Under the pieces are notes generated by a model. The model ran no database searches and was not told where the DNA came from. It saw nothing but the letters and a program-made list of their open reading frames with translations. A stretch of 64,000 nucleotides of DNA from a virus, in the IMG/VR virus record IMGVR_UViG_3300037467_001931, positions 1 through 64,000 of that record. One strand, given 5' to 3'. A program made the position numbers and the translations under genes. Below are positions 2,273-62,156 of this stretch, piece after piece. The stretch's first letter is position 1, and each line of letters starts with the position of its first letter.

Positions 2273-2608
2273 CTAATTATTAATCTTTCTATAAAACAAT
2301 TCAATCATCTGAACTCGTTCTGGTCGATCACTAATAAACTTCCTTGCATTTTCCTTCTCAACTTCAACTATTACTTTTGATAAATCTTTCCCTTTATATA
2401 AAGGCCAATCCCATAATGGATCTATATATCCATAACCTCCATGAGTTAATTCTGGGCTTATAGAAGCGTTACTAGATTTAGAAGATAATTTTTTCTCACA
2501 CATTTGTAACTTATTTGCTGAACTCCAGTCACTAATTGCGAAACCACCAGTAAAAGAAAGAGCAGCAAATATAGAAATTGCGATTGCAAGAAATACTGGG
2601 TGCATCAT
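2273..2608 (-). CDS. hypothetical membrane/secreted protein
   Basis: 111-aa ORF with hydrophobic N-terminus MMHPVFLAIAISIFAALSF. Last gene of the minus-strand array. Confidence 0.55.
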   Translation of the reverse strand: MMHPVFLAIAISIFAALSFTGGFAISDWSSANKLQMCEKKLSSKSSNASISPELTHGGYGYIDPLWDWPLYKGKDLSKVIVEVEKENARKFISDRPERVQMIELFYRKINN

Positions 2609-2859
2609 AATTCATCATCCTTATGAAGTTGTACTCTAAATACCCAATCATCCTCAGAAAACCTAATTGAAAAGATATTTACAATATCATTATACTTGAG
2701 TTTGAATTCCAGAATATCTTCAAGTGGAGCCGAATCTTGTCCTGTTAAATATAATTCATTTTCATTAGTATTAATATATCTTAACAAATAATCACAAACA
2801 CCCTTGAAGGTAGCAAAAACCTTCACACCACAATCACGATCAATTATTGTATAAACCAT
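2605..2859 (-). CDS. hypothetical protein
   Basis: 84-aa ORF. Its stop overlaps the downstream start by 4 nt. Confidence 0.5.
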   Translation of the reverse strand: MVYTIIDRDCGVKVFATFKGVCDYLLRYINTNENELYLTGQDSAPLEDILEFKLKYNDIVNIFSIRFSEDDWVFRVQLHKDDEL

Positions 2860-2923
2860 TACTCAATTACCTCATTAAATGAACAGAAATAATTATAATA
2901 CAATTTTTATTTAAAGTAAAGGA

Positions 2924-3133
2924 TTATTTATTAAAGTGAACTTCGTAATAGTTATCTTTATCTCTTGGATCATTAATGTACAAATTCTTTGGAATATCAA
3001 AGCACCAATATTCATAACAACGTAATTTTCTACTAATTTCAAATAATAATTTATTCTTCATGAAGAATCCTTCAATTAGTAACACTAATATAGCAATTGG
3101 TAGAAATGAAATCCAAAATAACAAAGCTTTCAT
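2924..3133 (-). CDS. small membrane protein
   Basis: 69-aa ORF with TM segment LLFWISFLPIAILVLLIEGFF. Confidence 0.5.
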   Translation of the reverse strand: MKALLFWISFLPIAILVLLIEGFFMKNKLLFEISRKLRCYEYWCFDIPKNLYINDPRDKDNYYEVHFNK

Positions 3134-3789: not shown

Positions 3790-3934
3790 CTTCTAAAAAA
3801 GCATATTTATGAGGTCCTTGTTCCCAAACAGCCCATACACAATCAGGCTGACAGATACACCAATTATACCCACCATATTTTGCTGGTTCTAATACTATTT
3901 CAGCAGGAACTTCCCAGAAGATGTCTTCTTTCAT
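3728..3934 (-). CDS. hypothetical protein
   Basis: 68-aa ORF. Its start overlaps the NAMPT-like stop by 4 nt. Confidence 0.45.
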   Translation of the reverse strand: MKEDIFWEVPAEIVLEPAKYGGYNWCICQPDCVWAVWEQGPHKYAFLEDAFRDAQKALSRIHLEQGFE

Positions 3935-5658
3935 AGAGAGTTAGATAATCTTTCTTTTATACCACTAAAGGATTCATGGAAAATCGCACCCTCATCATAA
4001 ACAACTCTTAATTCACCTTGCTCAGATTGCTCAAGAGTTTGATTATCATAGAGAACAAATTCACCATTTTCATTTTCAACTCGAAGTAATCCTACTGCAG
4101 ATTTCTTTGTTCCCGAATCAGTTTTTGGATTTTTAGAAATATTAACTGGTTTGCCATTTACCAAACCCCATGTGGCCTTCATGGCGAATCCAAATGTATC
4201 CCTGGTATTATAAGTATATGTGTAAGAACCAACACCAAACACGATATTATCTGAAGCGAATCCCTTTTCTTTTAACCTCTTTAGAATTTCATTTGCTCTT
4301 TCTAAAGTAATAGAATCACCATAAATGAGCCCTACTTTTTGATTTAGAGTTTTATATCCTTTTTCATTTACAGTTCCACCAAAAATATTCCATAGACATT
4401 CAACAGCACCAAGATGATGTGGTTCTGGTTCGACTTCTTCGAATGAAACTAAATGTGAACCATCTATGTAATAATATTGTTTATCATATCTATTCCACGA
4501 TATTTCTACATGAGCTTTATAATATTTCCCATGCGATTTAAATATTTCTACAACTTCTTCTGGGCCACATTCACCATGTGGTGTTTCACTTCCAACTGCA
4601 TTAACAATTAACTCTTCTGCATATAATTTTACTTTTTCGATACTTTCAATTGAACCGAAATCGTGAATATTATTTCCACAAATAATATCAACAGGATCAC
4701 CAGAATCAGGGCGAAATACTACTTTAGCCAATCCTTGTGAATCTGGTTGTCTGCTTATAATAACATCCTTTAACTCAGAAGCAATATTTGTGATGACGTT
4801 CCAAAAATCCCAGGAATCAGAAACAATAGAAACAACTCCTGTTGGATAAACATCTTGAATTATTCTTCGAATCGTTTCTTTTTCGTTTGATTCTTCCCCG
4901 ATACACATAACACTATGTTCGGTTGCAGGAACAGAATATCCATGAATTTTGGTTTTATCTTGATAATAATAATTAATGAAATCTACTGCTGGAAGTGTAT
5001 CAGTCCCTAAGAAGGATAATAAATGCCCTGCTCCTGTCTTGCAGGAATCCAACATATTTGTTGAACCACGCATCGAAAAATCATGCGCTTGGAATTGAAC
5101 GAAATCTTTATTACCTCCAGTAACATCTGACCAATAATTTAGTATTTTCTTATACGCGTCAGAAATAGTTGCAGCAGTGCTCATCTTCCAAAGTTCTGCT
5201 GAAAGATATGTTTCCAGGAAATTTGTTATCCAATAAAACCTTGGGTCAGTATTTGCTATAGTTAACACTGGAACTTTTATATTAACTCTTGATCCCTCTG
5301 GAAGAGCTTTTACAACAATAGGTAATGCGCCGTATTCCCACAATTCTTTCAATTTTTCTCTACTGAAAGTGTGGTCTCCGGTGAATGGTTTAATCTTTTC
5401 TAGAAATCTATCAGCAACAACATCGAATTTCTTTAAGAAAAAATTCTCTTGCCAATTTTGATTCATTTCCATCAGAACAGATTGCAAACCAAAAAATATG
5501 ACTTTATCACATTTAATTGGTAAGTTGGCTGGCACTTTAAAATGTGAATTACTTCTTGGGGTAAAGTTTGAATATATAAATTGCGTTCCTTCTGGATACT
5601 GACTTAGATGCCCTAATTTATAAGCGTCTGTTGCTACTAATGGATCAACTTTAAACAT
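3931..5658 (-). CDS. nadV: nicotinamide phosphoribosyltransferase-like protein (Nampt/NadV family; possibly NARP1 Namat)
   Basis: 575 aa. The N-terminus DPLVATDAYKLGHLSQYPEGTQFIYSNFTPRS matches the Nampt signature (human LLATDSYKVTHYKQYP...). Paired with a Prs-like gene. Confidence 0.88.
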   Translation of the reverse strand: MFKVDPLVATDAYKLGHLSQYPEGTQFIYSNFTPRSNSHFKVPANLPIKCDKVIFFGLQSVLMEMNQNWQENFFLKKFDVVADRFLEKIKPFTGDHTFSREKLKELWEYGALPIVVKALPEGSRVNIKVPVLTIANTDPRFYWITNFLETYLSAELWKMSTAATISDAYKKILNYWSDVTGGNKDFVQFQAHDFSMRGSTNMLDSCKTGAGHLLSFLGTDTLPAVDFINYYYQDKTKIHGYSVPATEHSVMCIGEESNEKETIRRIIQDVYPTGVVSIVSDSWDFWNVITNIASELKDVIISRQPDSQGLAKVVFRPDSGDPVDIICGNNIHDFGSIESIEKVKLYAEELIVNAVGSETPHGECGPEEVVEIFKSHGKYYKAHVEISWNRYDKQYYYIDGSHLVSFEEVEPEPHHLGAVECLWNIFGGTVNEKGYKTLNQKVGLIYGDSITLERANEILKRLKEKGFASDNIVFGVGSYTYTYNTRDTFGFAMKATWGLVNGKPVNISKNPKTDSGTKKSAVGLLRVENENGEFVLYDNQTLEQSEQGELRVVYDEGAIFHESFSGIKERLSNSL

Positions 5659-5685: not shown

Positions 5686-6474
5686 TTAAAATAACTCAAA
5701 TCCGTTAATATTCTTTCTTAGGCTTCTTGTTGTATAGAATTCCCTAATTCCACCATCAATAAGATGATCAAATCCCTTAGAAAAAATTCCATGAGTAACA
5801 TAAAGTGATAAATAATCAATCTCATATTGATAAAGTAATCTTGCTGCTCCCAAGAATGTTGCACCACCATCACAAATATCATCGACGATCAATAATCTCT
5901 TTCCATCAATTTCAACATCTTCTGTTTCTTTGGAAAATTTAATTCCAGTAATTGCACCAGTTTCTTGATTTCTTTCTTTATCTAAAATAACATATGGCAT
6001 ACAAGGAACTTCATATCTTGCTGCTGCTCCAGCATCCGGAAAGACAAGTACATTCGATTGTGATTCTTTAATTGCTCTTCTTATATAATTTGTTGCTGGA
6101 TAGCTTAAAATTCCTTTTTGTTCACTATGAATATCTAATGTTGAAATAATCCTACCACATCTGATATAATTTAATAGAGATAAGAACGGTTTCAATGCAA
6201 ATGTATTTTCATTTGATATTTCTTTATCTTGCCTTGCATATGGTAAGAAAGGAATAAAAATTTCAGGATTGACAATGTTATGAGCGTCTAATAATTCCAT
6301 CACTTGGTAGAGATGCATAAGTTCTGCTTCAGATTCAAAATGCCAAATGATTTTACAGGCATCTCGATTAAAGCGTTCTAAGGGTAATTTCCATACCTGA
6401 GAAGTTCCATCTGGAAAAATGGTTGGACTAATTCCCAACATTTCAGATGTATACATGTTTTTAAGAAATATCAT
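5686..6474 (-). CDS. prs: ribose-phosphate pyrophosphokinase-like protein (Prs family; possibly NARP1 Adps)
   Basis: Prs signature FLPYARQDKE and PRPP-binding loop LLIVDDICDGGATF. 262 aa, shorter than cellular Prs. Confidence 0.8.
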   Translation of the reverse strand: MIFLKNMYTSEMLGISPTIFPDGTSQVWKLPLERFNRDACKIIWHFESEAELMHLYQVMELLDAHNIVNPEIFIPFLPYARQDKEISNENTFALKPFLSLLNYIRCGRIISTLDIHSEQKGILSYPATNYIRRAIKESQSNVLVFPDAGAAARYEVPCMPYVILDKERNQETGAITGIKFSKETEDVEIDGKRLLIVDDICDGGATFLGAARLLYQYEIDYLSLYVTHGIFSKGFDHLIDGGIREFYTTRSLRKNINGFELF

Positions 6475-6476
6475 TT

Positions 6477-6701
6477 TTACTCCGATTTATTTACATTCTC
6501 TGCTGGACGATTCACACACATAAAAATTTCATTACGATCCATAATTCCAACTGAACATCCAGCTGCTATAGGATCTATTCCATTTTTAACCATTTCCGAA
6601 ACCGTATTCACTTTATTTACACTAACTGCTGCTACACTCAAAGTGATGGTCGCAATTAATAAAACTATAAGAGCAGTTACCTTTAAAATTATATTATTCA
6701 C
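6477..6701 (-). CDS. small membrane protein
   Basis: 74-aa ORF with TM ILKVTALIVLLIATITLSVAAV. Confidence 0.5.
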   Translation of the reverse strand: MNNIILKVTALIVLLIATITLSVAAVSVNKVNTVSEMVKNGIDPIAAGCSVGIMDRNEIFMCVNRPAENVNKSE

Positions 6702-6709
6702 AATTTAAC

Positions 6710-7066
6710 CTATTTTAGAAATTTAAATAATCCAGATTCATAATTTCCGTAATTTCCCATCCATTTCCATTCTGTATTTACAGCATCAAAGAAATCCTTT
6801 GAAGTTACATTTTCATCAATAATTACCCTTACAGATGGAGAATTTAATCTGCCACGACTCTTATCTCGACCAATCTTTCTTTCGAAATTATCTTTTGTGC
6901 TACAAATTGCAATAGCATATGCTTTAACGAATCCTTCATGTTCTATGTAAGCGATAGTAACTCCACCCATGTTGTGTGGGGTGAAGTCGTGACAATAATT
7001 TCGAAGATGAATATATTTCACAGGATAATCACCGATCATATCCCGCTGTTCTGGTGCTTGTTTCAT
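6710..7066 (-). CDS. hypothetical protein
   Basis: 118-aa ORF with RBS GGAGGATATAAA upstream on the minus strand. Confidence 0.55.
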   Translation of the reverse strand: MKQAPEQRDMIGDYPVKYIHLRNYCHDFTPHNMGGVTIAYIEHEGFVKAYAIAICSTKDNFERKIGRDKSRGRLNSPSVRVIIDENVTSKDFFDAVNTEWKWMGNYGNYESGLFKFLK

Positions 7067-7077
7067 TTTATATCCTC

Positions 7078-8148
7078 CTATTGGTTCTTTAATAAATAAG
7101 AATTAGAAATTGCCTTAAATGTGAAATCAGAATTGTATGACTTAAAAACTAATCCTTCTCTTACAGGATTATTCAAACTCTTTCCATCAGCGAATTTTAA
7201 TAAATCTTCGATACTTGTAATATTTCCATCAACAGAAAGATTGAAGAAATCATGAACTATTGGAACATGTTTGATATTTGCACCATAATCCAATAACTTA
7301 CTAAAAATCATTCGGCGTGTTAGAGGATCGAGATATTCACCTTGATCAATATCAAAGATATCAAAAACATAAAATTCATGCTCTTTAAGATTTTCTCTAT
7401 TGCCTTGAACTCTTGGGCCCATCAGTTCACCTTGAATGGCATAATTTCCTTCGATTTTTTCAATCGCTTTTAGTATTCCGGTCTTCTTTGACAAATCAAC
7501 AAAAGCATTACCTTCTTGTTCAAGTTTCAATTGTTGATTTCGTGAGCAAACCCCAATAGGATCATAGTCAGCTTTATCAAACTTGAAAACTGTCATTGAT
7601 GATCCATCAAGTTTCAATGTAACTTCAAATTCCTCATTGTGGTGATGATTAAAGATTTCATTAACTAAATTTTGACAACGTTCTTGATCAGTTTTTCTGA
7701 TGAAATAAGGAAACCTTCCTTTAATTTCTCCAGCAAGCTGAGCTTCTACAGGAGGTTCCCATTTCTTAATTCCTAATGCTTCTGTTAAATCTTGACCTTC
7801 ATACCAATTTTCATCATAAACCCAACCAATAATTGTTTCTGTAATGGTTGATAATGGAAGAAGTAAGCCTTGACTAAGTTTACCACGAAGTTTAATTGTT
7901 TTTAGACGTTGTCCTTCCACTCCATCATAAACCTTCGTATTATGACCCGGTTTGGTCAAGAATGGTGCCAAAGTATGAGGAACCCAAGAATCAATTTCAA
8001 AATATATGGCAAATTCACCAATTTTGAATTCATCTTTCTTTACTACAACTTGCCAACCACCAATTATAGCAAGTTCTATAGCATCTGCACCAACAATTGG
8101 TTTTATATTATCAATTTTTCTTATTGTTGCTAAAGATCGTTCAGTCAT
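7078..8148 (-). CDS. ATP-dependent RNA ligase (DraRnl/DRB0094-like, Rnl5-type)
   Basis: Adenylyltransferase motif I VTLKLDGSS. The N-terminal segment ATIRKIDNIKPIVGADAIELAIIGGWQVVVKKDEFKIGE is typical of the DRB0094-family N-terminal OB module. Confidence 0.68.
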   Translation of the reverse strand: MTERSLATIRKIDNIKPIVGADAIELAIIGGWQVVVKKDEFKIGEFAIYFEIDSWVPHTLAPFLTKPGHNTKVYDGVEGQRLKTIKLRGKLSQGLLLPLSTITETIIGWVYDENWYEGQDLTEALGIKKWEPPVEAQLAGEIKGRFPYFIRKTDQERCQNLVNEIFNHHHNEEFEVTLKLDGSSMTVFKFDKADYDPIGVCSRNQQLKLEQEGNAFVDLSKKTGILKAIEKIEGNYAIQGELMGPRVQGNRENLKEHEFYVFDIFDIDQGEYLDPLTRRMIFSKLLDYGANIKHVPIVHDFFNLSVDGNITSIEDLLKFADGKSLNNPVREGLVFKSYNSDFTFKAISNSYLLKNQ

Positions 8149-8407
8149 TTTTAAAGTGCTCTACAATGTTTATATTCATATACCCTTCAACTCTATAGAA
8201 GAACTTATCACGCCAGCATTCTTCGAATGCGCATTCTAATATTTTACCAGTTAAATATAAAACAACATTTCCTTTACCGTATTCCCCACACATTGAAATG
8301 ATAAAAGTATCATCAGTGGCATCAACTGGCTTATATATTCCTTCCCCATTTTTAACAAAAACCCAACCAAGTTTTACTTTTTCTGATCGTTGTAAATTGA
8401 TGTTCAT
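8141..8407 (-). CDS. hypothetical protein
   Basis: 88-aa ORF. Its stop overlaps the RNA ligase start by 8 nt. Confidence 0.5.
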   Translation of the reverse strand: MNINLQRSEKVKLGWVFVKNGEGIYKPVDATDDTFIISMCGEYGKGNVVLYLTGKILECAFEECWRDKFFYRVEGYMNINIVEHFKND

Positions 8408-8602: not shown

Positions 8603-9133
8603 ATGCCAAATTTAACCTGCCCATACCCATCAAACGTGAATCCTCTATATTCAAATGGATTTATGTTTTCTATACAAAAATTACCAGAGCTAAAGTATTT
8701 TTGCCAAACAGCAAATATACCATCATTGTCTTTAGGAATTTCTACACAATCTAGTCCATTTTCTGATTCTAGAATTCCTGGAGATAAATTAGAATTCGAA
8801 AGTTTAAATATCGAATTCATAGTTGATGAAGGAATGGATAATTATATGGGAATTCATGCATGGATAAAAGGATTAGGATTTCCAAAAAGTTATGATCAGT
8901 ACATCGAACTTTTGTCAACAGTTCAACAACAAAATATCTCTGAATTAGAAAAGAATTATTCAGACGCAACTCTTACTATTTTAAACTCAAATTTCAATCC
9001 TGTAAAGTCACTAAGTTTCATTAATTTGTTTCCTATCTCAATAAACACTATTCCATTCACATCAACAAATACAGATGCTCAACCAATTATAGCTTCGGCA
9101 ACATTCATATACACATATTACGAATTCATTTAA
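8603..9133 (+). CDS. tail tube/baseplate tube family protein (T4 gp19/gp54-like fold family)
   Basis: NGFMFSIQKLPELKYFCQTANIPSLSLG...IPGDKLEFESLNIEFIVDEGMDNYMGIHAWI parallels T4 gp19 NLFQVEI..FTFQCKATALPAG...AGDRTFDDWTVTVMNDE...W. Confidence 0.45.
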   Translation: MPNLTCPYPSNVNPLYSNGFMFSIQKLPELKYFCQTANIPSLSLGISTQSSPFSDSRIPGDKLEFESLNIEFIVDEGMDNYMGIHAWIKGLGFPKSYDQYIELLSTVQQQNISELEKNYSDATLTILNSNFNPVKSLSFINLFPISINTIPFTSTNTDAQPIIASATFIYTYYEFI

Positions 9134-9210: not shown

Positions 9211-9648
9211 ATGAATTTAGAATTTTTGAAGGAAGAATGGAGTAAAGATTGTGTAATAGATGAAACAAAAATAACTCAAGCTTCCCTCGGAACCGCAAAG
9301 TTACATAGTAAATACCTCAATATCCTTGTTGAAACAAAACAAAAAATAACCTTAGAAAAGCACAATTTAAATAAAATAAAAAAGTTAAAGACTCGTTATT
9401 ATAAGGGTGAATTAACAAAACCAGAATTAGAAAAATATGGTTGGGATCAATATCAATATAACAAACCATTAAAATCTGAACTCAATGATATTTTAGATGG
9501 TGATGATGATGTGATTCAGAAAAAAGAACAGATAGAATATCTAGAAACAAAGTTATATTTTCTAGAGTCTGTATTAGGATCTCTGAGAAACAGAGGATTT
9601 GATATCAAAAATGCAATAGAATGGGGTAAGTACTTATTAGGAAATTAA
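9211..9648 (+). CDS. uvsY: recombination mediator UvsY
   Basis: LKEEWSKDCVIDETKI...HSKYLN and the C-terminal SLRNRGFDIKNAIEW are colinear with T4 UvsY (LQEELKKDVFIDSTKL...YSKWLN...SRGFAIKHIQD). Confidence 0.85.
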   Translation: MNLEFLKEEWSKDCVIDETKITQASLGTAKLHSKYLNILVETKQKITLEKHNLNKIKKLKTRYYKGELTKPELEKYGWDQYQYNKPLKSELNDILDGDDDVIQKKEQIEYLETKLYFLESVLGSLRNRGFDIKNAIEWGKYLLGN

Positions 9649-9671: not shown

Positions 9672-10409
9672 ATGAAAACTTACGAGTATGAAATAAGAGT
9701 TGCAGAAACGGAAAAGGATTTCAGGGAAGCAGCGGACTTAGTTTCAGAAATGTACGGAACCAAAGGTTATAAAGTCGATCCTGAAAACTTATATGATAAT
9801 GCAGAAAATAAAATAACACTAATATCAAAGTTTGAAGATGTTACAATAGGAACCATATCATTGATATTTGATAATGGTTCTAAAAATCTTAATGTTGATC
9901 AAAGTTATCCAGAAAGAATATCTGAACTTAGAAATGCTGGGTATAAGGTTTGTGAAATAACTAAGTTTGCAGTATCTGATAAAATCAGATCAACAAAACA
10001 TTTAGCTTCGTTATATTCTTTATTATCTCTTTACGCATATATAAATGATTCTACACATTTATTAATTGAAGTAAATCCAAGACATGAAAATTACTACAAA
10101 AAAACTCTTGGGTTTGAAAAAATTGATGAATATAAAATATGTGAAAGAGTAAATGCTCCAGGAGTACTATTGTTAGCAACAATGTTTTATTGGCACGAAC
10201 AAATAAGATTAAATGCAGGAAACAGAAGTAAAAATAGAAATATATTCAATCAGTTCTTTACTATAGAAGAATTGTGTAAAATCAAGCAATCTATATTATC
10301 CGGAAATAAAAAGTTGACAGTTGAAGAAGATAATTTCTCCTTTCAAATTATTAATAAATATCCATATATTACTTGTTTTATGGATATATTTTGTCAACAA
10401 TCTACATAG
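9672..10409 (+). CDS. GNAT-fold acyltransferase, FeeM/N-acyl amino acid synthase-like
   Basis: CEITKFAVS...LLIEVNPRHENYYKKTLGFEKIDEYKICERVNAPGVLLL matches the E-[IV]-[ST]-[RK]-[FL]-A and NP[RK]H..[FY]Y..LGFE pattern I associate with FeeM/exosortase-associated N-acyl amino acid synthases. A paralog lies at 61647. Confidence 0.45.
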   Translation: MKTYEYEIRVAETEKDFREAADLVSEMYGTKGYKVDPENLYDNAENKITLISKFEDVTIGTISLIFDNGSKNLNVDQSYPERISELRNAGYKVCEITKFAVSDKIRSTKHLASLYSLLSLYAYINDSTHLLIEVNPRHENYYKKTLGFEKIDEYKICERVNAPGVLLLATMFYWHEQIRLNAGNRSKNRNIFNQFFTIEELCKIKQSILSGNKKLTVEEDNFSFQIINKYPYITCFMDIFCQQST

Positions 10410-11893
10410 AAAAAATCTCAGAAACCTATATCAAGATAAATTCAACTAAAGATATAGAAACAGAGCTTTCACAGTATTTCACGTTCGAATCACCTGGAGC
10501 AAAGTATACTCCTCTCTATAAGGCAAAGAGATGGGATGGGATGATTCGACTTTATAATCGCTCAACTAAACTACTATATGCTGGATTATATGATATGGTA
10601 GTTAGTTGGGCTGAAAATAATGGTTATGAAATAGAAATTATTCAAAATGAATATTATACCATATTCTCCAAAGAAAAAGAAGTTGATAGAGAAAAAGTTG
10701 AAGCTTGGATAAATTCTCTAGACGTTCATGATGGATATGGAAATCCAATTGAAGTTAGAGAATATCAAATAGATGCATTTATCCAAGCAATAAAAACAAA
10801 GAGAATTATTCTCCTTTCACCGACAGCTTCTGGTAAATCACTGATCATTTATCTATTGGTTAGATTTTTCCAGATGATCAATAAAAAGATGTTACTGGTT
10901 GTTCCTTCTGTAGCATTAGTTCAACAAATGTTCAATGATTTTAATGATTATGCATTAACTCAGGAATGGAAATCGGAGGATAACTGTCAGGAAATATATG
11001 CTGGTAAAACTAAGGAAATAACAAAATCCGTTACCATTTCAACATGGCAATCACTTTATGATTTAAAGAATAAAAGTTTCTTTGAACAGTTCGATGTAGT
11101 GTTTGGTGACGAGGCACACCAGTTTAAATCTAAATCTCTATGTACTATAATGGAGAAATTATCTAATGCCAAATATAGAGTAGCAACAACTGGAACAATA
11201 GACGAAAAATCCAGTGTTAATATTTTAACCTTAACTGGATTATTTGGTAAACAATTTACCGTTTCAACTCTTAGAGAATTAATGGATGATGGATTTATTT
11301 CTCAGTTGAAAATTAAAGTATTAGTTCTAAAACATAGTGATGAGGTGAGAAAAGTAGTATCTAAATATGATTATAAAAATGAAATAAATTATATTTGTTG
11401 TGATCAAGAACGAAATGAATTCATTGCTAAATTGGCATTATCATGTGATGGAAATACATTAATACTTGTTAATTATGTAGAAAAACATGCAAAACCATTA
11501 ATTGAAATGATCAGTGAAATGGTTAAAGGAACTGATAGAAAGGTTTTTGGAATATTTGGTTCAGCTTCTATAGAAGATTTAAAAGGACCAATAGAGAAAG
11601 AAAATAACTGTACAATTATTGCTTCTTATTCTAAATTCTCTACAGGAGCTAATGTTCCATCAATAAGGAATATTATTTTTGGTTCTCCTAATAAATCATA
11701 TATTAGAATTTTTCAATCACTTGGTAGAGGATTAAGATTACATAAAAATAAAGATTATTGCACATTATATGATATTATTGATAATCTTTCATGGAAGAAG
11801 AAAAGAAATACAACTATAGAACATGGAACTGAGAGAATTAAGATGTATAATGATCAAGAATTTAATTATGATATAGAAGAGATAGATTTATGA
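10373..11893 (+). CDS. uvsW: ATP-dependent DNA helicase UvsW
   Basis: Walker A SPTASGKS, DEAH box FGDEAHQF, motif VI QSLGRGLR. The C-terminus ERIKMYNDQEFNYDIEEIDL is colinear with the T4 UvsW end. No ATG is available; the start is a non-ATG codon (TTG 10373 or 10391). Confidence 0.9.
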   Translation: MFYGYILSTIYIEKISETYIKINSTKDIETELSQYFTFESPGAKYTPLYKAKRWDGMIRLYNRSTKLLYAGLYDMVVSWAENNGYEIEIIQNEYYTIFSKEKEVDREKVEAWINSLDVHDGYGNPIEVREYQIDAFIQAIKTKRIILLSPTASGKSLIIYLLVRFFQMINKKMLLVVPSVALVQQMFNDFNDYALTQEWKSEDNCQEIYAGKTKEITKSVTISTWQSLYDLKNKSFFEQFDVVFGDEAHQFKSKSLCTIMEKLSNAKYRVATTGTIDEKSSVNILTLTGLFGKQFTVSTLRELMDDGFISQLKIKVLVLKHSDEVRKVVSKYDYKNEINYICCDQERNEFIAKLALSCDGNTLILVNYVEKHAKPLIEMISEMVKGTDRKVFGIFGSASIEDLKGPIEKENNCTIIASYSKFSTGANVPSIRNIIFGSPNKSYIRIFQSLGRGLRLHKNKDYCTLYDIIDNLSWKKKRNTTIEHGTERIKMYNDQEFNYDIEEIDL

Positions 11894-11963: not shown

Positions 11964-12008
11964 GATATCGCCTTCGGCGATCGGCTTCGCCGAGATATTA
12001 TTTTTTAT
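11964..12008 (+). terminator. tandem GC hairpins plus T-run after uvsW
   Basis: ATCGCC-TTC-GGCGAT and TCGGC-TTC-GCCGA, followed by ATATTATTTTTTA. Confidence 0.7.
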
Positions 12009-18127: not shown

Positions 18128-19177
18128 ATGGGAAACCGAGTTTTATTTATTTTAAAGCGAAGAGAGGATTATGCTCTCGACGTTAGTTACAGCAAAAATG
18201 GTTTATCAACAGGACTATTAAATTCAGCAACATTCGTTAATGATATGCTGAATAAAGATGGGATAGAATCAAAAATAGTTGTTGTCATAGATAATAATGA
18301 TATTGATCGTGAAGTTACAAAATATAAACCAACCCACGTTATTATTGAGGCATTATGGGTTGTTCCTGAGAAGTTTGATATTTTAACTAAGCTTCACCCA
18401 AATGTAAAGTGGATTGTTCGTTTCCATTCTGAAATTCCTTTTCTTTCTAACGAAGGAATTGCAATGGAATGGCTGTTCCAATATATCACCAAGAAGAATG
18501 TATATATTGGAGTAAACAGCACAAGATTTCTAAAAGAATCAAAAAATCTCTTAAATAAAATTGTTGATCAGAATTATATTGATGAGCATGTAATTTTCCT
18601 TCCAAACTATTATCCAACTGGTGAAATCAACTTCCCTTTACCTGATATGTTCACCAGAACGTTTGAAATTGGTTGCTTTGGAGCTATTAGGCCGTTGAAG
18701 AACCATTTAATGCAAGCGGTTGCAGCAATTAAGTTTGCTGATATGCATAGAAGGAAACTTAATTTCCACATCAACGTTGGACGAGTGGAAATGAAAGGTA
18801 AAAACATTTTAAATAATCTTCATTCACTTTTTGCTAATATACAAGATTCTGGTCATCAGTTGGTAGTTCATGATTGGTTAGAACATGATGATTTCCTTGA
18901 ATTGATCTCCTGTATGGACATCTGTATGCAGATTAGCTTCTCAGAAACCTTTAATATTGTTGCTGCGGATTCTATTTCAGTAGGGGTCCCAACTGTTATG
19001 TCTAAAGAAATTCCATGGGCAAGATTTGGAGTTGCAGACCCTACAGATCTCGATGATATCGTCCAAACAATGAATAGAACATGGAAGTATAGGTTCGCGA
19101 ATTCTATCATAAATCAATTGAGCCTCAATTCATACGTCAAAAATTCTGAGAAGGTTTGGCTCAGATATTTTCGATAA
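18128..19177 (+). CDS. GT-B (GT4-like) glycosyltransferase
   Basis: C-terminal sugar-donor motif ISFSETFNIVAADSISVGVPTV (E-x7-E-like). Its start abuts the stop of the preceding ORF. Confidence 0.5.
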   Translation: MGNRVLFILKRREDYALDVSYSKNGLSTGLLNSATFVNDMLNKDGIESKIVVVIDNNDIDREVTKYKPTHVIIEALWVVPEKFDILTKLHPNVKWIVRFHSEIPFLSNEGIAMEWLFQYITKKNVYIGVNSTRFLKESKNLLNKIVDQNYIDEHVIFLPNYYPTGEINFPLPDMFTRTFEIGCFGAIRPLKNHLMQAVAAIKFADMHRRKLNFHINVGRVEMKGKNILNNLHSLFANIQDSGHQLVVHDWLEHDDFLELISCMDICMQISFSETFNIVAADSISVGVPTVMSKEIPWARFGVADPTDLDDIVQTMNRTWKYRFANSIINQLSLNSYVKNSEKVWLRYFR

Positions 19178-19612: not shown

Positions 19613-20368
19613 ATGAAAGAAATTATTATATCTTTATCTGTGCCATTAGTATTTTTTGTATGTGGTGGAGCTTTTGCTAATAATGTCGATCAAAAATTAT
19701 TGACCAATCTTAAGTACCAAACAAGTTCTAATTCTAGTAGTTGGCACGGTAATGGCCATGGTGGAAATACAGGAGTTAATCCATCAGTAAATAAAGTTCC
19801 AGTTCCCAATGCATTGTTTCTAACTCTTATTGGATTTGTTGGGTTAATTTTTGTTAGGACTAAGAAAAGAATTATTACATTTTTAGCCATCTTACTACTA
19901 ATCGGTGGAACGAGCGTAGCCTTCGCACAAAGCATTCCTCTTATTCCTACTTTAGTTGATCAGGGAATTAACTTATCTGGATCTAATCAGGCTGCTTCAT
20001 CTTCATGGAGTTGGTCAAATTCTAATTCTAATGCAACTGGTGGGGACGCGGTTGCCACCAATATGGGAAACAACCAAAATGTCAATTTCCAATATGGGGG
20101 AGGAACTCATGAAAGAAACGCTCCAGCTGTTTTCATGGGATCATTGTTTCCAACTGCTCCTTGCCAGGGGACCGCTAATGGATTTCTATCAGCATTTGTT
20201 TTTGGTGGAGTTGGTGGTGGTATGTCCTTCACCCTAGAGCAATGTGAAATCAGAGAAGAAGCAAGAGTTGCTTATGGCATTGGTCAACCAGAAATCGCAA
20301 AGGAAATATTATGTATGGCTAAGTATGCCAGCCAAACTAAATTTTGTAAAAAAGAAGAAAGTATTTAA
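19613..20368 (+). CDS. secreted protein with internal PEP-CTERM-like motif and a second signal-like segment
   Basis: Signal peptide MKEIIISLSVPLVFFVCGGAFA, then a G/S/N-rich segment, then VPVPNALFLTLIGFVGLIFVRTKKR (PEP-CTERM-like). Next comes IITFLAILLLIGGTSVAFAQ and a 165-aa Cys-containing domain. Confidence 0.55.
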   Translation: MKEIIISLSVPLVFFVCGGAFANNVDQKLLTNLKYQTSSNSSSWHGNGHGGNTGVNPSVNKVPVPNALFLTLIGFVGLIFVRTKKRIITFLAILLLIGGTSVAFAQSIPLIPTLVDQGINLSGSNQAASSSWSWSNSNSNATGGDAVATNMGNNQNVNFQYGGGTHERNAPAVFMGSLFPTAPCQGTANGFLSAFVFGGVGGGMSFTLEQCEIREEARVAYGIGQPEIAKEILCMAKYASQTKFCKKEESI

Positions 20369-21327: not shown

Positions 21328-22296
21328 ATGGCACATCAGATAGATTTCAGTAATGGTCGGGCAAATATGGCGTTCGTCGGTGATCGGGCAAATATTTGGC
21401 ACGGTCTTGGTCAACAACTCACAGATGAAGCTTCGATAGATGTTTGGAAGGTTGAAGCTGGGATGAACTGGGTGATCGAGAGCTCCCCCATCATCTATGA
21501 CAACGGTGTTCGAGATGGGAATCCATTTCCAATCTATTCTGGGAAGCGAGTACTTTTCAGGTCTGACACGAAAGAAGCTCTTTCCATCGTTTCCAACAAG
21601 TACAATGTAGTTCAACCAGAGGAAGTTCTCGAATTCTTCCGTGATCTTACTGAAGATTTAGGGATGAAAATGAGCACTGCTGGATGCCTCTTCGGTGGTC
21701 GCAAGTTCTGGGCCTTGGCTGACACAGGTCTGGCAGGGAAGGTTCTTGGGGATGATGAAGTTAAGGGATACACTCTTCTCACTTCATCCTGTGATGGTTC
21801 CTCCCCAACGATTGCTCAGTTCACTTCCATTCGGGTGGTGTGCAATAACACTCTGGAGTGGTCTCTTCAAGGATCTTCCAGCAAGAGAGCTTCGGTTCGT
21901 CATCGTCGGGTGTTTTCACCAAGAGACATCAAGGCTTCTCTCGGATTGGTTCATTCTTCTTGGGATGCGTTTATGGATTCCATCACTGTTCTTTCTGAAA
22001 AGAAGGTTACAGATAAAATGGCGAGAAAATTCATCGAAAATCTTCTGGTCAACAAAGGATCAGAAATCACCGATGCTCAGGTGAGAAAGACTGATGCAAT
22101 TTTCGATCTTTTCAAGAACGGAATGGGAGCTGATATGTCTCGGGGAACTCTCTGGGGTGTTGTAAATGGCGTTACCGAATTCGTTGATCATCACTCAGGT
22201 GGTCGAATTGGTGACACGAAACTCTGGAACTCCTGGTATGGGAACGGAGCCACCTTAAAGAATAAGGCATTCGAGAACGCTCTGGCCTTACTCTAA
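21328..22296 (+). CDS. DUF932 / phage-plasmid-like protein (TIGR03299-type)
   Basis: The N-terminus MAHQIDFSNGRANMAFVGDRANIWHGLGQQL and the length fit the DUF932 family as I recall it. The gene is a GC-enriched island. Confidence 0.65.
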   Translation: MAHQIDFSNGRANMAFVGDRANIWHGLGQQLTDEASIDVWKVEAGMNWVIESSPIIYDNGVRDGNPFPIYSGKRVLFRSDTKEALSIVSNKYNVVQPEEVLEFFRDLTEDLGMKMSTAGCLFGGRKFWALADTGLAGKVLGDDEVKGYTLLTSSCDGSSPTIAQFTSIRVVCNNTLEWSLQGSSSKRASVRHRRVFSPRDIKASLGLVHSSWDAFMDSITVLSEKKVTDKMARKFIENLLVNKGSEITDAQVRKTDAIFDLFKNGMGADMSRGTLWGVVNGVTEFVDHHSGGRIGDTKLWNSWYGNGATLKNKAFENALALL

Positions 22297-24438: not shown

Positions 24439-24759
24439 ATGGATATTCAAATTTTTTCAATTCTTTTGTCTTTTATTGCGTTTGGTGTTGGATATTATTA
24501 TGGTTATATCAAAGGTAAAATGTTCGTTATCCAACAAACGAATTATTACTATTCATACGCTGATGACCCAAACGCGATAGAATTTTATATAGAAAAGGTT
24601 AGTGAAGAGTTACTTCTATATGAAAAATTAACAAATAATTTTATAGTAAAATTTACAACATTAGAAGAAACCAAAGAATTTCTTCAGAATAAATATCCTG
24701 GAAAGATTGTTTGGATTAAAAAAGAAAATTTACAAAGTGTAGGATTGGATTTATCATGA
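24439..24759 (+). CDS. hypothetical membrane-anchored protein
   Basis: 106-aa ORF with N-terminal TM IFSILLSFIAFGVGYYYGYI. Confidence 0.5.
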   Translation: MDIQIFSILLSFIAFGVGYYYGYIKGKMFVIQQTNYYYSYADDPNAIEFYIEKVSEELLLYEKLTNNFIVKFTTLEETKEFLQNKYPGKIVWIKKENLQSVGLDLS

Positions 24760-25211
24760 CTGTTATTGCTTGGGATGGAAGAATTTTAGCCGCAGATAAA
24801 CGTATGTCAAATGGTGGCCTCATCAATACCATTACTAAAATATTTCGTTTTGGTGATATTGTTGTTGCTACTTGTGGAAGAGTCGATCAAGGATTATCCA
24901 TGGTTGACTGGGTAAAGAATGGAAGGATCATTGAAAAATTTCCAACCACACAACAACTCAGTAATTTTTCCCCTGCTGCAGTTGTTGAAAATGGAAGATT
25001 GTATGTTTATGAAAGTGCACCATACCCATATTTAATAGAAGATCAATTTTGGGCTGCAGGATCAGGAAGAGATTTTGCTTTAGCTGCCATGTTTCTTGGT
25101 AAAACTGCTATTGAAGCAGTGCAGGTGGCCAGCGCTTTTCAGAACGATTGTGGGAATGGATGTGATTGGTTCGATTTTTCTGGAGTGTTAAATAATGTCG
25201 AATCCGTTTGA
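24756..25211 (+). CDS. proteasome/HslV-like Ntn-hydrolase
   Basis: Thr2 follows the initiator Met (MTVIAWDGRILAADKR...KIFRFGD...), plus AAGSGRDFALAAM. This parallels HslV TTIV...AGDGQ... and IAIGSGGPYAQAAA. Confidence 0.55.
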   Translation: MTVIAWDGRILAADKRMSNGGLINTITKIFRFGDIVVATCGRVDQGLSMVDWVKNGRIIEKFPTTQQLSNFSPAAVVENGRLYVYESAPYPYLIEDQFWAAGSGRDFALAAMFLGKTAIEAVQVASAFQNDCGNGCDWFDFSGVLNNVESV

Positions 25212-34784: not shown

Positions 34785-36113
34785 ATGGTTAAAAAAATTG
34801 TTGCAACAGAAAAATTAAATTGTGAACACCTTCTAGGGATGTTCCTTGACGAAAGTCACTATGATTTACTTGTAGAATCGGATATGGATTTCTACACGCC
34901 ACAGAATATAAATGGTGAAAGTGAAATTCTATTTTCCTTCAGGAAGAATTATTTTACTGAAGAAGAACAAAAGGGTGCTTATGATGGTCTTTTTGCCGCT
35001 GCAACAATTTCTGAAAATCGTGGAATGGCTGCAGGGACTAAGGAAGGATACACAAATACAAATGTGGCTGGTGAACGTCAATTCGTTACCAATTACGAAA
35101 GAGAAATGATGGATGCCATAATGGCTGATGTCAATGCAAAATTAGTTGAAGAAGAAGATTGCATCACCAAAGTTCGTAACAAGTATCCCACTGTTGAATC
35201 TAGAAGGAGATGTGAAGGTAGTTCCATGAATCTCACTTGGGTAATCAATAGAATCAGGAATGGTAAAAAATTATTTGTTTTTGATGATTGGGTTGATTCT
35301 ATAATTCCCCTATCGAAAAAGGAACGTGCAGAAGCGGTTGAGGATGTCAGCACGATGATGTCGCAATCTCATTATGGTAATAAAGTTTTCTCTGGTGTGG
35401 CTGGATTTTATGATCGTTATCCAAGAATTCCATATGGAAGAGCAACTTCCTACACCGAACATAATCCAGAAAAATGGAAGTTGGCATTTCCCTATCTTCA
35501 AAAACTGAGTGCTGCGTATAAGGAACTCATTCCTCTGAAATGGGCAAATCAAAATGAAGCAATTCAAAAACTCGATCCTGAATTTGTTGTGCCTGGAACA
35601 GTATTCACAACAATTACAGTTAATAAAACTTTCAGGACTGCTGCTCATAGGGATGCAGGTGATCTTTCCACAGGGTTCTCCAATCTTTGCGTAATTACTA
35701 ACGGGAAGAAATTTTCCGGTGGGTATTTGATATTCCCTGAGTTCAACGTAGCTATTAATATTCGTCCTGGTGATTTGCTTTTGGTTAACAATCATGAGGG
35801 AATTCATGGAAACACACCAATAGTTCTTGAAGAAGAAGGTGCAGAAAGAATTTCTTTAGTTTGCTATTTCCGTGAAGGAATGTTGGAACTTGGTGAAAAG
35901 AAGTATGAAGACATTCGTAGACAATTTATAAGAGATAGAAAAAATAATGAGAATCATCCATTCTGGAAATTTGGGTGGAATGGTGTTTCTGCTGGTTGGG
36001 AAAGCAGTCAAGAATGGTATGATTATCTTTCCTCAAAAGAAAATGGTGAAAGATATTTAAAAATGTATCATCCAGAAGCAGAAAAGGTTTCTCTAGAGGA
36101 TTTATTTGCGTGA
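34785..36113 (+). CDS. 2OG-Fe(II) dioxygenase, TET/JBP-like (candidate nucleic-acid base hydroxylase)
   Basis: Catalytic core FRTAAHRDAGD (HxD in the AHRD context seen in TET), ...GDLLLVNNHEGIHGNTP (distal His), ...ERISLVCYF (2OG-binding Arg). Confidence 0.55.
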   Translation: MVKKIVATEKLNCEHLLGMFLDESHYDLLVESDMDFYTPQNINGESEILFSFRKNYFTEEEQKGAYDGLFAAATISENRGMAAGTKEGYTNTNVAGERQFVTNYEREMMDAIMADVNAKLVEEEDCITKVRNKYPTVESRRRCEGSSMNLTWVINRIRNGKKLFVFDDWVDSIIPLSKKERAEAVEDVSTMMSQSHYGNKVFSGVAGFYDRYPRIPYGRATSYTEHNPEKWKLAFPYLQKLSAAYKELIPLKWANQNEAIQKLDPEFVVPGTVFTTITVNKTFRTAAHRDAGDLSTGFSNLCVITNGKKFSGGYLIFPEFNVAINIRPGDLLLVNNHEGIHGNTPIVLEEEGAERISLVCYFREGMLELGEKKYEDIRRQFIRDRKNNENHPFWKFGWNGVSAGWESSQEWYDYLSSKENGERYLKMYHPEAEKVSLEDLFA

Positions 36114-38519: not shown

Positions 38520-38593
38520 TGGGGAATGGTCTAATGGTATGACTCCGGAATTTGACTCCGGCAATGTAGGTTCGATTCCTGCTTCCTCTGCCA
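38520..38593 (+). tRNA. tRNA-Gln (anticodon UUG)
   Basis: Manual cloverleaf: acceptor TGGGGAA/TTCCTCT (position 1:72 is U:U), D arm GTCT..TGAC. Anticodon stem CCGGA/TCCGG with loop ATTTGAC. T arm GTAGG-TTCGATT-CCTGC, discriminator G, encoded CCA. Confidence 0.85.
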
Positions 38594-54730: not shown

Positions 54731-54883
54731 ATGGCGAAGGAAAAATTTAGATGCAGCGAATGCGATGGAGAGGGGACTGTATCATTTAAACAAACTGATA
54801 CAAGATTTCCCTTGGAGGTTGTATTTTGCCCATTTTGTTCGGCTGATTTAGATACTGGTGTAGAAGAAGACGAAGAAGATTAA
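54731..54883 (+). CDS. small zinc-ribbon ORF (50 aa) with acidic tail
   Basis: RBS AAGGAAAG. CSEC...CPFC, then EEDEED. Confidence 0.45.
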   Translation: MAKEKFRCSECDGEGTVSFKQTDTRFPLEVVFCPFCSADLDTGVEEDEED

Positions 54884-55275
54884 ATCTTCACGTGACTGTG
54901 ATGAATTCTACAAGATATTTGTTTATTGTAGAATTTGTTTGGAATTTCTAAAACTTCATGTTGGAATTGGAGCTTCGCCTCCAAGTATCCCATCATACCT
55001 TTATTTTTGCAGAGAAATAGAATTTCTCTCTTGAAGTTTTCTTTACCTAATTTCAGAACGTCTTGTTTTAATTCTTCTGAAGAACTGTAATATTCTTTCC
55101 AGTCTGATTCTTCTTTAATCTTTTTTTTCTTTTTCTTGATTATTTTTGTCTTAGTGAACCAAAATAATTTCTTTCCGAAGTATTCCCTTCCATCAACAAG
55201 GTTGGTTATTTTATACACGAATCCAGTAAAACCTGCTGGAATTTCTGTAAATTCTTTATTTTCATATATCCACAT
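54880..55275 (-). CDS. GIY-YIG endonuclease-like protein (free-standing homing-endonuclease type, catalytic domain only)
   Basis: GFVYKITNLVDGREYFGKK is a GIY-(10)-YIG-like motif, with a downstream conserved Glu in GYLEAKL. It lies on the opposite strand, inserted after the nrd genes. Confidence 0.6.
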   Translation of the reverse strand: MWIYENKEFTEIPAGFTGFVYKITNLVDGREYFGKKLFWFTKTKIIKKKKKKIKEESDWKEYYSSSEELKQDVLKLGKENFKREILFLCKNKGMMGYLEAKLQFQHEVLEIPNKFYNKQISCRIHHSHVKI

Positions 55276-61646: not shown

Positions 61647-62156
61647 ATGATGTCACTGAATTTTGGGGAATATTCGGTTAGAATTAGTAACAATAGACCA
61701 GATCTTGTCAAAAAAAGATATGACGAAAGTGGGCTGAAAATAAAAGATTCAATAACTAGCAGTTCTTTAGTCATTGAATGTTTGAGAAACTCTAAAATAA
61801 TTGGATCAGTGACAGTTGATTTGGGTAACTATCAAGATTTTTTCGCATATGATAGTTACCCAGAAAAATTAAAAGAATTTCAAGAAAAAAACTCCAGGAT
61901 GGCTGAAATAACTAAATTGGCCATTGAACAAGGAGAAGAAACCAGAATGGTAATGGGCCTAATGTTCAATATGATCTATAGGCTATGCGTGATCAAAAAT
62001 GGGATTACCCATTTCATAGTAGAATGCAAAAAGAATCATGTTGCAGGTTATAAAAGATTATTGAAATTTGAATTGGCCGATGGGCCAAAGTATAATCCTA
62101 TTGCTCAAGGGGAGGCATGTCTATTGGTATTAGACATTAATAAAGTTACTAATTAG
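61647..62156 (+). CDS. GNAT-fold acyltransferase, FeeM/N-acyl amino acid synthase-like (paralog of 9672)
   Basis: AEITKLAIE...HFIVECKKNHVAGYKRLLKFE...ACLLVLD has the same motif order as ORF 9672 (CEITKFAVS...LIEVNPRHENYYKKTLGFE...GVLLLA). Confidence 0.4.
   Translation: MMSLNFGEYSVRISNNRPDLVKKRYDESGLKIKDSITSSSLVIECLRNSKIIGSVTVDLGNYQDFFAYDSYPEKLKEFQEKNSRMAEITKLAIEQGEETRMVMGLMFNMIYRLCVIKNGITHFIVECKKNHVAGYKRLLKFELADGPKYNPIAQGEACLLVLDINKVTN

Follow-up and report, generated by a model that had tools for sequence, protein, structure and literature searches.

A predicted FeeM-family N-acyl amino acid synthase gene between uvsY and uvsW of a T4-like aquatic phage

[quoted passage not shown] FeeM1 occupies 9672..10409 on the + strand, stop included, and was defined from the list of open reading frames (ORFs), the Pfam profile PF21926, the FeeM structure 2G0B and an AlphaFold2 model searched with Foldseek. 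It begins with an ATG codon and encodes 245 aa that contain, in order, the motifs KVCEITKFAVS (residues 92-102), LLIEVNPRHENYYKKTLGFEKI (130-151) and NAPGVLLL (161-168). Upstream lie a tail-tube gene (8603-9133) and uvsY (9211..9648, +; PF11056 at 88.6 bits, phrog_231), the latter separated from FeeM1 by a 23-nt spacer. Downstream is the gene of the UvsW helicase (10391..11893, +), recognised by UvsW_N (PF21241), ResIII, DEAD and phrog_16. As uvsW has no usable ATG, its start must be TTG 10391 or, alternatively, TTG 10373, giving an overlap with the 3' end of FeeM1 of 19 nt or 37 nt, respectively. Homology with cyanophage UvsW starts at residue 6-8 of the longer uvsW ORF. An initial annotation, made by a model from the sequence, had described the ORF, its length, its motif order and its overlap with a non-ATG start of uvsW, and each of these details is borne out by the sequence.

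FeeM1 is probably co-transcribed with both neighbours. No terminator-like hairpin was found between uvsY, FeeM1 and uvsW, and one lies 3' of uvsW at 11973..11994 (+), an arrangement that points to a single transcription unit. A scan for sigma-70-type promoters returned no more sites than in shuffled sequence. The T4 late-promoter motif TATAAATA was not enriched and does not occur 5' of FeeM1.

Profile, sequence and structure comparisons all place FeeM1 in the FeeM/NAS family, as the initial annotation had proposed, and none assigns it to an ordinary acetyltransferase family. FeeM (PDB 2G0B), which derives from soil environmental DNA, is an N-acyl tyrosine synthase dependent on acyl-acyl carrier protein (acyl-ACP) and belongs to the type I NAS family represented by PF21926. 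This profile matches residues 20-168 of FeeM1 at 134.2 bits (E 4.5e-39, cutoff 27), and no other Pfam family, thus no GNAT or LuxI model, is matched at E ≤ 1. A sequence search of the PDB returned FeeM 2G0B as the sole match (E 5.5e-13, residues 9-178). The AlphaFold2 model of FeeM1, built on 23 homologues (pLDDT 87.6, pTM 0.85), likewise has 2G0B as its best PDB match in Foldseek, with E 4e-14, a TM score (TM) of 0.86 and a root-mean-square deviation of 2.1 Å. The runners-up are generic GNATs at ~3e-7, seven orders of magnitude weaker than FeeM.

The catalytic FeeM/GNAT-like domain delimited by the Pfam envelope (residues 20-168, 9729..10175, +) contains the Glu95 codon at 9954-9956 and the motif IEVNPRHxxYY at residues 132-142. 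Glu95 aligns with the active-site Glu of FeeM (FeeM Glu95), which has been proposed to be catalytic, and the equivalent Glu103 of Nas354 is essential (PMC4897644). E95, N135, P136 and H138 are invariant in 39 homologues. FeeM has a single HxxF motif, implicated in carrier-protein/phosphopantetheine (Ppant) binding (PMC11685415), and H138 and Y141 are its counterpart. This correspondence (FeeM His145/Phe148) is motif-based, with an offset of 1-2 between the numbering of the PDB chain and that of the papers. The acetyl-coenzyme A (CoA) P-loop [QR]xxGx[GA] of ordinary GNATs was not found in FeeM1.

That FeeM1 is instead an ordinary GNAT N-acetyltransferase acting on proteins, antibiotics or polyamines, or else a decaying non-functional remnant, is extremely improbable. 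Its fold is of the GNAT type and many generic GNATs are recovered at E ~1e-6 in structure searches, but the FeeM profile and structure matches are far stronger and GNAT families are absent from the Pfam result. These matches, Glu95 and the missing acetyl-CoA P-loop together argue against an ordinary acetyltransferase. The bare assignment of FeeM1 to this enzyme family is thus regarded as very likely. To judge from its sequence, FeeM1 is an intact FeeM-family enzyme that has kept its catalytic residues and is conserved in a phage clade. It shares with FeeM the Pfam family, the fold, the catalytic Glu, the HxxF/Y motif and the lack of a CoA P-loop. Unlike FeeM, to which it is 26-28% identical, it carries a ~60-residue C-terminal extension of a different subfamily and is encoded in a lytic-type T4-like phage without an adjacent ACP (FeeL-like) gene.

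The same comparisons bear on the idea that FeeM1 is a LuxI-like acyl-homoserine lactone (AHL) synthase with which the phage emits or mimics a quorum-sensing signal. The two groups share a fold superfamily, and the structure search with the FeeM1 model also recovers the AHL synthase LasI (E 5e-7, TM 0.49). Among the viral proteins of BFVD, the best match (E 2.5e-6) is a protein of Roseobacter phage RDJL Phi 2 annotated as an AHL synthase, which resembles FeeM1 in being phage-encoded, in its acyltransferase superfamily and in potentially producing an acylated small-molecule signal. However, the RDJL Phi 2 protein is of the LuxI-type family with a different product, and is 13% identical to FeeM1. 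Matches to AHL synthases are at superfamily level only (TM 0.47-0.59, 12-13% identity) versus TM 0.86 and 26% identity for FeeM, and no LuxI or autoinducer synthase model of Pfam or NCBIfam matches FeeM1. AHL synthesis is therefore considered highly improbable.

The initial annotation had associated the motif order of FeeM1 with the FeeM/exosortase-associated branch of the NAS group. The NCBIfam search gave no match of FeeM1 or its paralog to TIGR03694 at E ≤ 1, with no positive control for the presence of this model in the library. Cellular relatives that reside in XrtA loci, described below, also lack a match, at E ≤ 0.01. Membership of FeeM1 in TIGR03694 is thus not supported by these profile searches. 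The sole NCBIfam model spanning more than half of FeeM1 is PRK14852, a fusion of FeeM, ThiF and nitroreductase, which covers residues 8-184 at 46 bits, far under its full-length cutoff. The PADLOC defence models gave no meaningful match.

FeeM1 continues for 77 residues beyond the Pfam domain. The ~70-aa C-terminal extension noted in the initial annotation is present, but most of it is common to the subfamily and only the last ~15 residues are unique. According to alignments and pLDDT, residues ~169-231 (10176..10364, +) form a subfamily-conserved helical extension that is alignable with cellular and phage homologues, many of which reach query residues 200-228. It includes NIFNQFF (189-195), the equivalent of the SLYPYFF motif of the homologues, and is modelled as helices at pLDDT 81-93 up to residue ~220. 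The lineage-specific tail of ~15 residues plus stop (10365..10409, +), delimited in the same way, overlaps the uvsW start, has a pLDDT of 42-50 and does not occur in three phage orthologues (P0002, P0003 and P0070). Where the FeeM1 tail overlaps uvsW, these sister phages have a gap of 42-86 nt before that gene. The tail is a product of read-through into the uvsW start.

A second member of the family, FeeM2, is encoded at 61647..62156 (+), downstream of PhoH and GH19-like genes. Previously noted as a shorter paralog, this divergent protein of 169 aa lacks the C-terminal extension and matches PF21926 at 75.5 bits (cutoff 27), yet it is 22-25% identical to FeeM1. Its NPRH motif is altered while the catalytic Glu and His are kept, and the Glu is conserved across the FeeM2 clade. 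Orthologues with 60% and 49% identity occupy the same position after PhoH and GH19 in two other phage contigs.

Genes for gp22/gp23, UvsX/Y/W, gp41, gp43, gp44, gp45, RegA, a ligase and salvage of nicotinamide adenine dinucleotide (NAD) of the NAMPT/phosphoribosyl pyrophosphate (PRPP) type mark the window as the part of a T4-like myophage genome that serves structure and replication. The phage is an aquatic T4-like myophage of the pelagimyophage/Melnitz group. Its gp23 is 66-68% identical to that of Pelagibacter phage HTVC008M and of Methylophilales (OM43) phage Melnitz, whose level its UvsW does not reach, with no more than 45% identity to that of any phage in GenBank. The window is part of a 154,404-bp JGI contig (3300037418, Ga0395900_0000100) which ends ~2.7 kb beyond FeeM2, and other metagenome and SRA assemblies contain copies that are identical at the nucleotide level. 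The GC content of the window is 32.8%, and that at third codon positions (GC3) of FeeM1 is 18%, the same as in neighbouring genes.

In this group of phages, accessory genes appear to have been inserted repeatedly at the site that FeeM1 occupies. In cyanophage relatives uvsY directly adjoins uvsW, and in HTVC008M the slot holds a hypothetical ORF of 276 aa (77489-78319; L006:4490-5320) which also overlaps the uvsW start. The HTVC008M ORF was considered as a FeeM homologue and rejected, being unrelated to FeeM. Abutting genes in cyanophages and an unrelated ORF in HTVC008M suggest that the junction is an insertion hot spot.

A word-indexed protein search with FeeM1 returned only FeeM1 itself, and homologues became visible only in an exhaustive HMMER search, which gave 1,797 representative sequences. 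Three of these, P0002, P0003 and P0070, stand out as the most phage-like and share 31-40% identity with FeeM1. Their genes lie directly 5' of uvsW on three T4-like phage contigs, with uvsY upstream in two of the three. In a simple neighbour-joining tree without support values, the four phage FeeM1-type proteins form one clade (pairwise identity 31-46%) that is sister to betaproteobacterial sequences. In the favoured reading, FeeM1 derives from a betaproteobacterial-type lineage of the family. The syntenic orthologues retain every family-invariant residue at 31-40% identity, which makes decay of FeeM1 into a remnant unlikely. Syntenic orthologues, a phage clade, a GC3 like that of the neighbours and the orthologues of FeeM2 indicate one or two old acquisitions of the FeeM genes followed by long retention under purifying selection, with neither gene being a recent stray.

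No homologue was found in 50,697 GenBank phage records by megablast and tblastn with FeeM1 and FeeM2, and no relatives were found in IMG/VR by scans with FeeM1, a phage-clade profile and the FeeM2 clade. Nor was a homologue detected in PHROGs or, at family level, in BFVD. A search of JGI metagenomes with the phage-clade profile found only 34 high-GC cellular loci, none of which had UvsW, UvsY or gp23. Known auxiliary genes of phages serve photosynthesis and nucleotide, phosphate and NAD metabolism. No description of phage synthesis of lipoamino acids or oxazolone lipids was found in the phage databases and literature searched. The suggestion in the initial annotation that lipoamino acid synthesis by a lytic phage would be new biology is consistent with these results, in which no GenBank phage, IMG/VR, PHROGs or BFVD homologue and no paper describing one was found. 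The enzyme family is known; what is new is that lytic-type T4-like phages carry a member of it as an auxiliary gene, which is conserved and duplicated and derives from an exosortase-linked lipid module.

The gene neighbourhoods of cellular relatives bear on the function of FeeM1. With one genome scanned for each species, at least 589 loci with FeeM1 relatives were recovered. The best 80 of these are almost all from Betaproteobacteria and include the genera Thiobacillus, Sulfuricella, Nitrosospira, Duganella, Massilia, Janthinobacterium, Methyloversatilis and Rubrivivax. Genes that lie within 6 kb of the FeeM-type gene include one for a ThiF-nitroreductase in 37 of the 80 loci, one for an XrtA/PEP-CTERM exopolysaccharide (EPS) exporter in 18 and one for a PrsT-like TPR protein in 33, the TPR matches being promiscuous. 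In Nitrosospira multiformis the cluster consists of PrsT (TIGR02917, 953 bits), FeeM, a ThiF/nitroreductase fusion, a GMC oxidoreductase and an SDR protein. The Duganella cluster combines an XrtA-system EPS exporter (TIGR03027, 239 bits) and FeeM with a trypsin-like protease and a Wzy_C-like protein. A further cellular cluster (L094/L095; L094:4052-14646) encodes FeeM, an FDO-type nitroreductase, an O-methyltransferase, ThiF (PRK08223, 343 bits) and a PEP-CTERM protein, and continues with two PrsT paralogs and sigma-54 response regulators belonging to the XrtA system.

These partner genes resemble two described pathways, OxzA/OxzB, known from Pseudoalteromonas rubra among other proteobacteria, and TyzA/B/C of M. 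tuberculosis, in which the same trio arrangement is seen as in the nearest cellular relatives of FeeM1. In both pathways N-acyl-Tyr/Phe is the product of an acyltransferase, and cyclisation and desaturation by the two partner enzymes then turn it into an acyl-oxazolone (PMC10404671; bioRxiv 10.1101/2020.06.11.147165; PMC12856293). The partner genes of the relatives suggest acyl-oxazolone chemistry beside plain N-acyl amino acids. Oxz/Tyz-like clusters inside XrtA/PEP-CTERM loci of Betaproteobacteria were seen in L094 and L095, and also in L072 and L024. The three oxazolone papers mention neither exosortase systems, PEP-CTERM nor phages, and a link from oxazolone lipids to exosortase and EPS may be undescribed. 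Such clusters connect the literatures on oxazolone biosynthesis and on exosortases, between which no cross-citation was seen in the papers examined.

An exosortase connection of NAS genes has been made before. According to passages in PMC7293339 and PMC11072679 that cite Craig et al. 2011, NAS genes are linked to PEP-CTERM/exosortase loci, and in Methylomonas LW13 deletion of the NAS abolished the formation of a polysaccharide band (PMC11072679). FeeM1 resembles this exosortase-associated NAS group (Craig, Cherry & Brady 2011; TIGR03694; Methylomonas LW13 ExoAT) in that its cellular relatives reside in XrtA/PEP-CTERM loci and in that phages of its clade encode PEP-CTERM cargo. It is unlike that group in that neither the phage proteins nor their betaproteobacterial relatives match TIGR03694, and in that no exosortase was found in the window. 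Hence the tie to exosortase/PEP-CTERM systems drawn in the initial annotation stands as far as the position of the nearest cellular relatives beside PrsT and the EPS exporter is concerned, and in the phage PEP-CTERM protein described next, but not at the level of the TIGR03694 profile.

This PEP-CTERM cargo is found in the sister phage L004, which carries the FeeM1 orthologue P0002. Beside its gp23 gene, at 2497-2952 (-), is encoded a 151-aa protein ending in VVPEPGILALLGIGILGMCLSRRK, with the canonical sorting signal of a C-terminal VPEP, a transmembrane helix and SRRK. Both PEP-CTERM models recognise it, PF07589 with 28.3 bits (cutoff 20.7) and TIGR02595 with 25.1 bits (cutoff 16). A canonical PEP-CTERM protein in this phage implies a host with an exosortase.

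The window itself contains an ORF with a PEP-CTERM-like motif (19613..20368, +), which had been pointed out in the initial annotation as a possible coincidence. The motif exists, at residues 62-86 (nt 19796-19870), but it is internal and only marginal by TIGR02595. The encoded protein begins with a signal peptide and a Gly/Ser/Asn-rich stretch, followed by VPVP, a hydrophobic helix and RTKKR. After the motif come a second signal-peptide-like segment (IITFLAILLLIGGTSVAFA|Q) and a 145-aa Cys-containing domain, and the basic cluster of the motif is also the n-region of this second segment. TIGR02595 reaches 16.9 (cutoff 16) only if the scan is restricted to the N-terminal 87 aa, and the full-length protein has no Pfam match. 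The ORF could encode a two-part secreted protein, or it could have arisen by gene fusion or by loss of a stop codon. Its PEP-CTERM link is suggestive only and a tie to the FeeM genes is possible. Immediately 5' of it, at 18128-19177 (+), lies a 349-aa ORF with weak similarity to group-1 glycosyltransferases (Pfam E 2e-4) and to the NCBIfam model 'XrtY-associated glycosyltransferase' (E 0.01).

ThiF adenylyltransferases of the Oxz/Tyz cyclase type, an unusual finding in phages, are encoded in two sister phages. In L091, a contig from the same sample as the window which carries a FeeM2 orthologue, a 280-aa ThiF is encoded ~4.5 kb downstream of that orthologue and is followed by a LolA-like gene (PF17131; region 6666-8239). 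The L091 ThiF shares 41% identity (E 1e-62) with the ThiF domain encoded in the Nitrosospira cluster and 54% with its counterpart in the L094 cluster, and it matches PRK08223 at 283 bits (cutoff 266). Another T4-like contig, L096, encodes at 615-1454 a second ThiF, with 56% identity.

It is possible that FeeM1, FeeM2 or both catalyse the first step of a full phage acyl-oxazolone pathway like that of OxzA or TyzA, with an oxazolone lipid as the end product and with the ThiF cyclase and flavin desaturase supplied by the rest of the genome (~90 kb) or by the host. The ThiF proteins of L091 and L096, the ThiF-nitroreductase genes beside 37 of the 80 cellular relatives and the partial match to the PRK14852 fusion model favour this pathway. 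By published descriptions and gene arrangement, FeeM1 can be likened to OxzA and TyzA in the N-acylation of an amino acid, with sister phages carrying ThiF. Unlike Oxz/Tyz, the acyltransferase gene of the window stands alone between recombination genes, and a nitroreductase/FDO was found in no phage DNA examined. No ThiF or nitroreductase lies directly beside FeeM1 in any phage contig examined, and a FeeM2-bearing phage contig (L089) has no ThiF within 8 kb. As none of the best 120 ThiF homologues lies on the 154,404-bp contig, the oxazolone route is not demonstrated for this phage. A complete phage pathway of this kind is considered unlikely.

Amino acid N-acylation from an acyl thioester is also the chemistry of membrane aminolipid synthesis. 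In this alternative, the enzyme would act like OlsB or GlsB on ornithine, glycine or comparable head groups and remodel the membrane of the infected cell, for example to spare phosphorus, instead of making a signal. Such lipids are used by aquatic hosts in low-nutrient conditions (PMC11631085), and FeeM1 gives a weak NCBIfam OlsB match (E 0.029, 14 bits). However, this score compares with a cutoff of 350 bits and covers residues 3-123 only, there is no Acetyltransf_5/OlsB-type Pfam match, and an OlsA-like second acyltransferase was not found in the window. The closest relatives of FeeM1 are NAS/OxzA-type enzymes located in EPS rather than lipid-synthesis loci. A role in aminolipid synthesis is very unlikely.

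Overall, FeeM1 is likely an enzyme of FeeM-family N-acylation that takes part in lipid chemistry linked to the XrtA/PEP-CTERM system of the host. By analogy with characterised relatives, Glu95 would act as the catalytic base and a medium- or long-chain fatty acyl group would be transferred to the alpha-amino group of a free amino acid, yielding an N-acyl amino acid. The acceptor would most likely be aromatic, as in all characterised relatives. As acyl donor the enzyme would draw on a thioester of the host, which could be acyl-ACP (the donor of FeeM) or acyl-CoA (that of OxzA and TyzA). The cues to the donor conflict, as the HxxY motif and missing P-loop resemble ACP-dependent FeeM whereas OxzA and TyzA use acyl-CoA. 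Given its probable co-transcription with uvsY and uvsW, FeeM1 would be made during phage replication. In ThiF-carrying phages, the N-acyl product may be processed further.

The ThiF-nitroreductase module of the relatives in XrtA loci, together with the ThiF and PEP-CTERM proteins of sister phages, suggests that the phage enzyme most likely supplies or mimics a lipid used by the XrtA/PEP-CTERM EPS system of the host. The outcome could be a change in the envelope, EPS or aggregation of the infected cell, or support for the sorting of phage PEP-CTERM proteins. As a specific role, takeover of the exosortase system is a tentative and rather doubtful proposal.

Several observations weigh against the reading of FeeM1 as part of XrtA-linked lipid chemistry. 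The predicted donor, chain length and acceptor are taken from the family, and the XrtA system of the host is presumed from gene context. In the window, tblastn found no ThiF, nitroreductase, methyltransferase, PrsT or EPS exporter, and there is no ACP motif, no multi-pass exosortase-like protein and no other lipid gene. This search for module parts covered the 64-kb window of the 154,404-bp contig; for ThiF, none of the best 120 homologues lies on that contig. The internal and marginal motif of the 19613 ORF, the lack of a TIGR03694 match and the simplicity of the tree count on the same side. The metagenome copies L001-L003 are nucleotide-identical to the window and offer no variation for a population-level test of selection.

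A broader proposal is that a T4-like aquatic phage clade has captured part of a host exosortase-linked lipid toolkit. The captured parts would be a pair of NAS paralogs, the cargo proteins of PEP-CTERM type and, in some of the phages, a ThiF cyclase. During infection an effector made with them, an N-acyl amino acid or an oxazolone, would take control of the exopolysaccharide programme governed by XrtA/PEP-CTERM. In this complete form the proposal is speculative and on balance unlikely. If true, such a takeover could turn the formation of EPS or flocs on or off, hide receptors from superinfecting phages or license surface sorting of phage PEP-CTERM proteins. It would also represent the first phage-made lipid effector and provide a handle on the function of exosortase-associated NAS and oxazolone lipids. 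The only clues to the bacterial role of NAS and oxazolones are the genomic link to PEP-CTERM/exosortase EPS loci and one knockout phenotype. Long retention of two genes, along with ThiF and PEP-CTERM proteins in relatives, argues that infected cells are affected by the lipid strongly enough for selection to act. The phage lineage could thus serve as a compact system for learning the function of the lipid.

Several other genes of the window were recorded in passing. A 442-aa protein encoded at 34785-36113 (+) has a Tet/JBP 2-oxoglutarate-Fe(II) dioxygenase domain (PF12851, 90.8 bits) and is a candidate for DNA base hydroxylation or hypermodification. NAMPT (3931-5658, -; NAMPT_N and NAPRTase) and a PRPP-synthetase-like phosphoribosyltransferase (5686-6474, -) form an auxiliary pair for NAD salvage, which is also kept in the sister phage L004. 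Between the clamp-loader genes and regA, a 151-aa ORF (24756-25211, +) matches the Pfam Proteasome subunit family at 25.6 bits (cutoff 22.4), with the match limited to residues 6-54. A SegE-type GIY-YIG homing endonuclease gene (54880-55275, -), annotated via the contig L092, lies just past the ribonucleotide reductase genes. The window has a single tRNA-Gln gene with anticodon TTG (38520-38593, +). Finally, an RNA ligase (7078-8148, -; PF09414/PF21189) and a DUF932 protein (21328-22296, +; 184 bits) are encoded among the replication genes.

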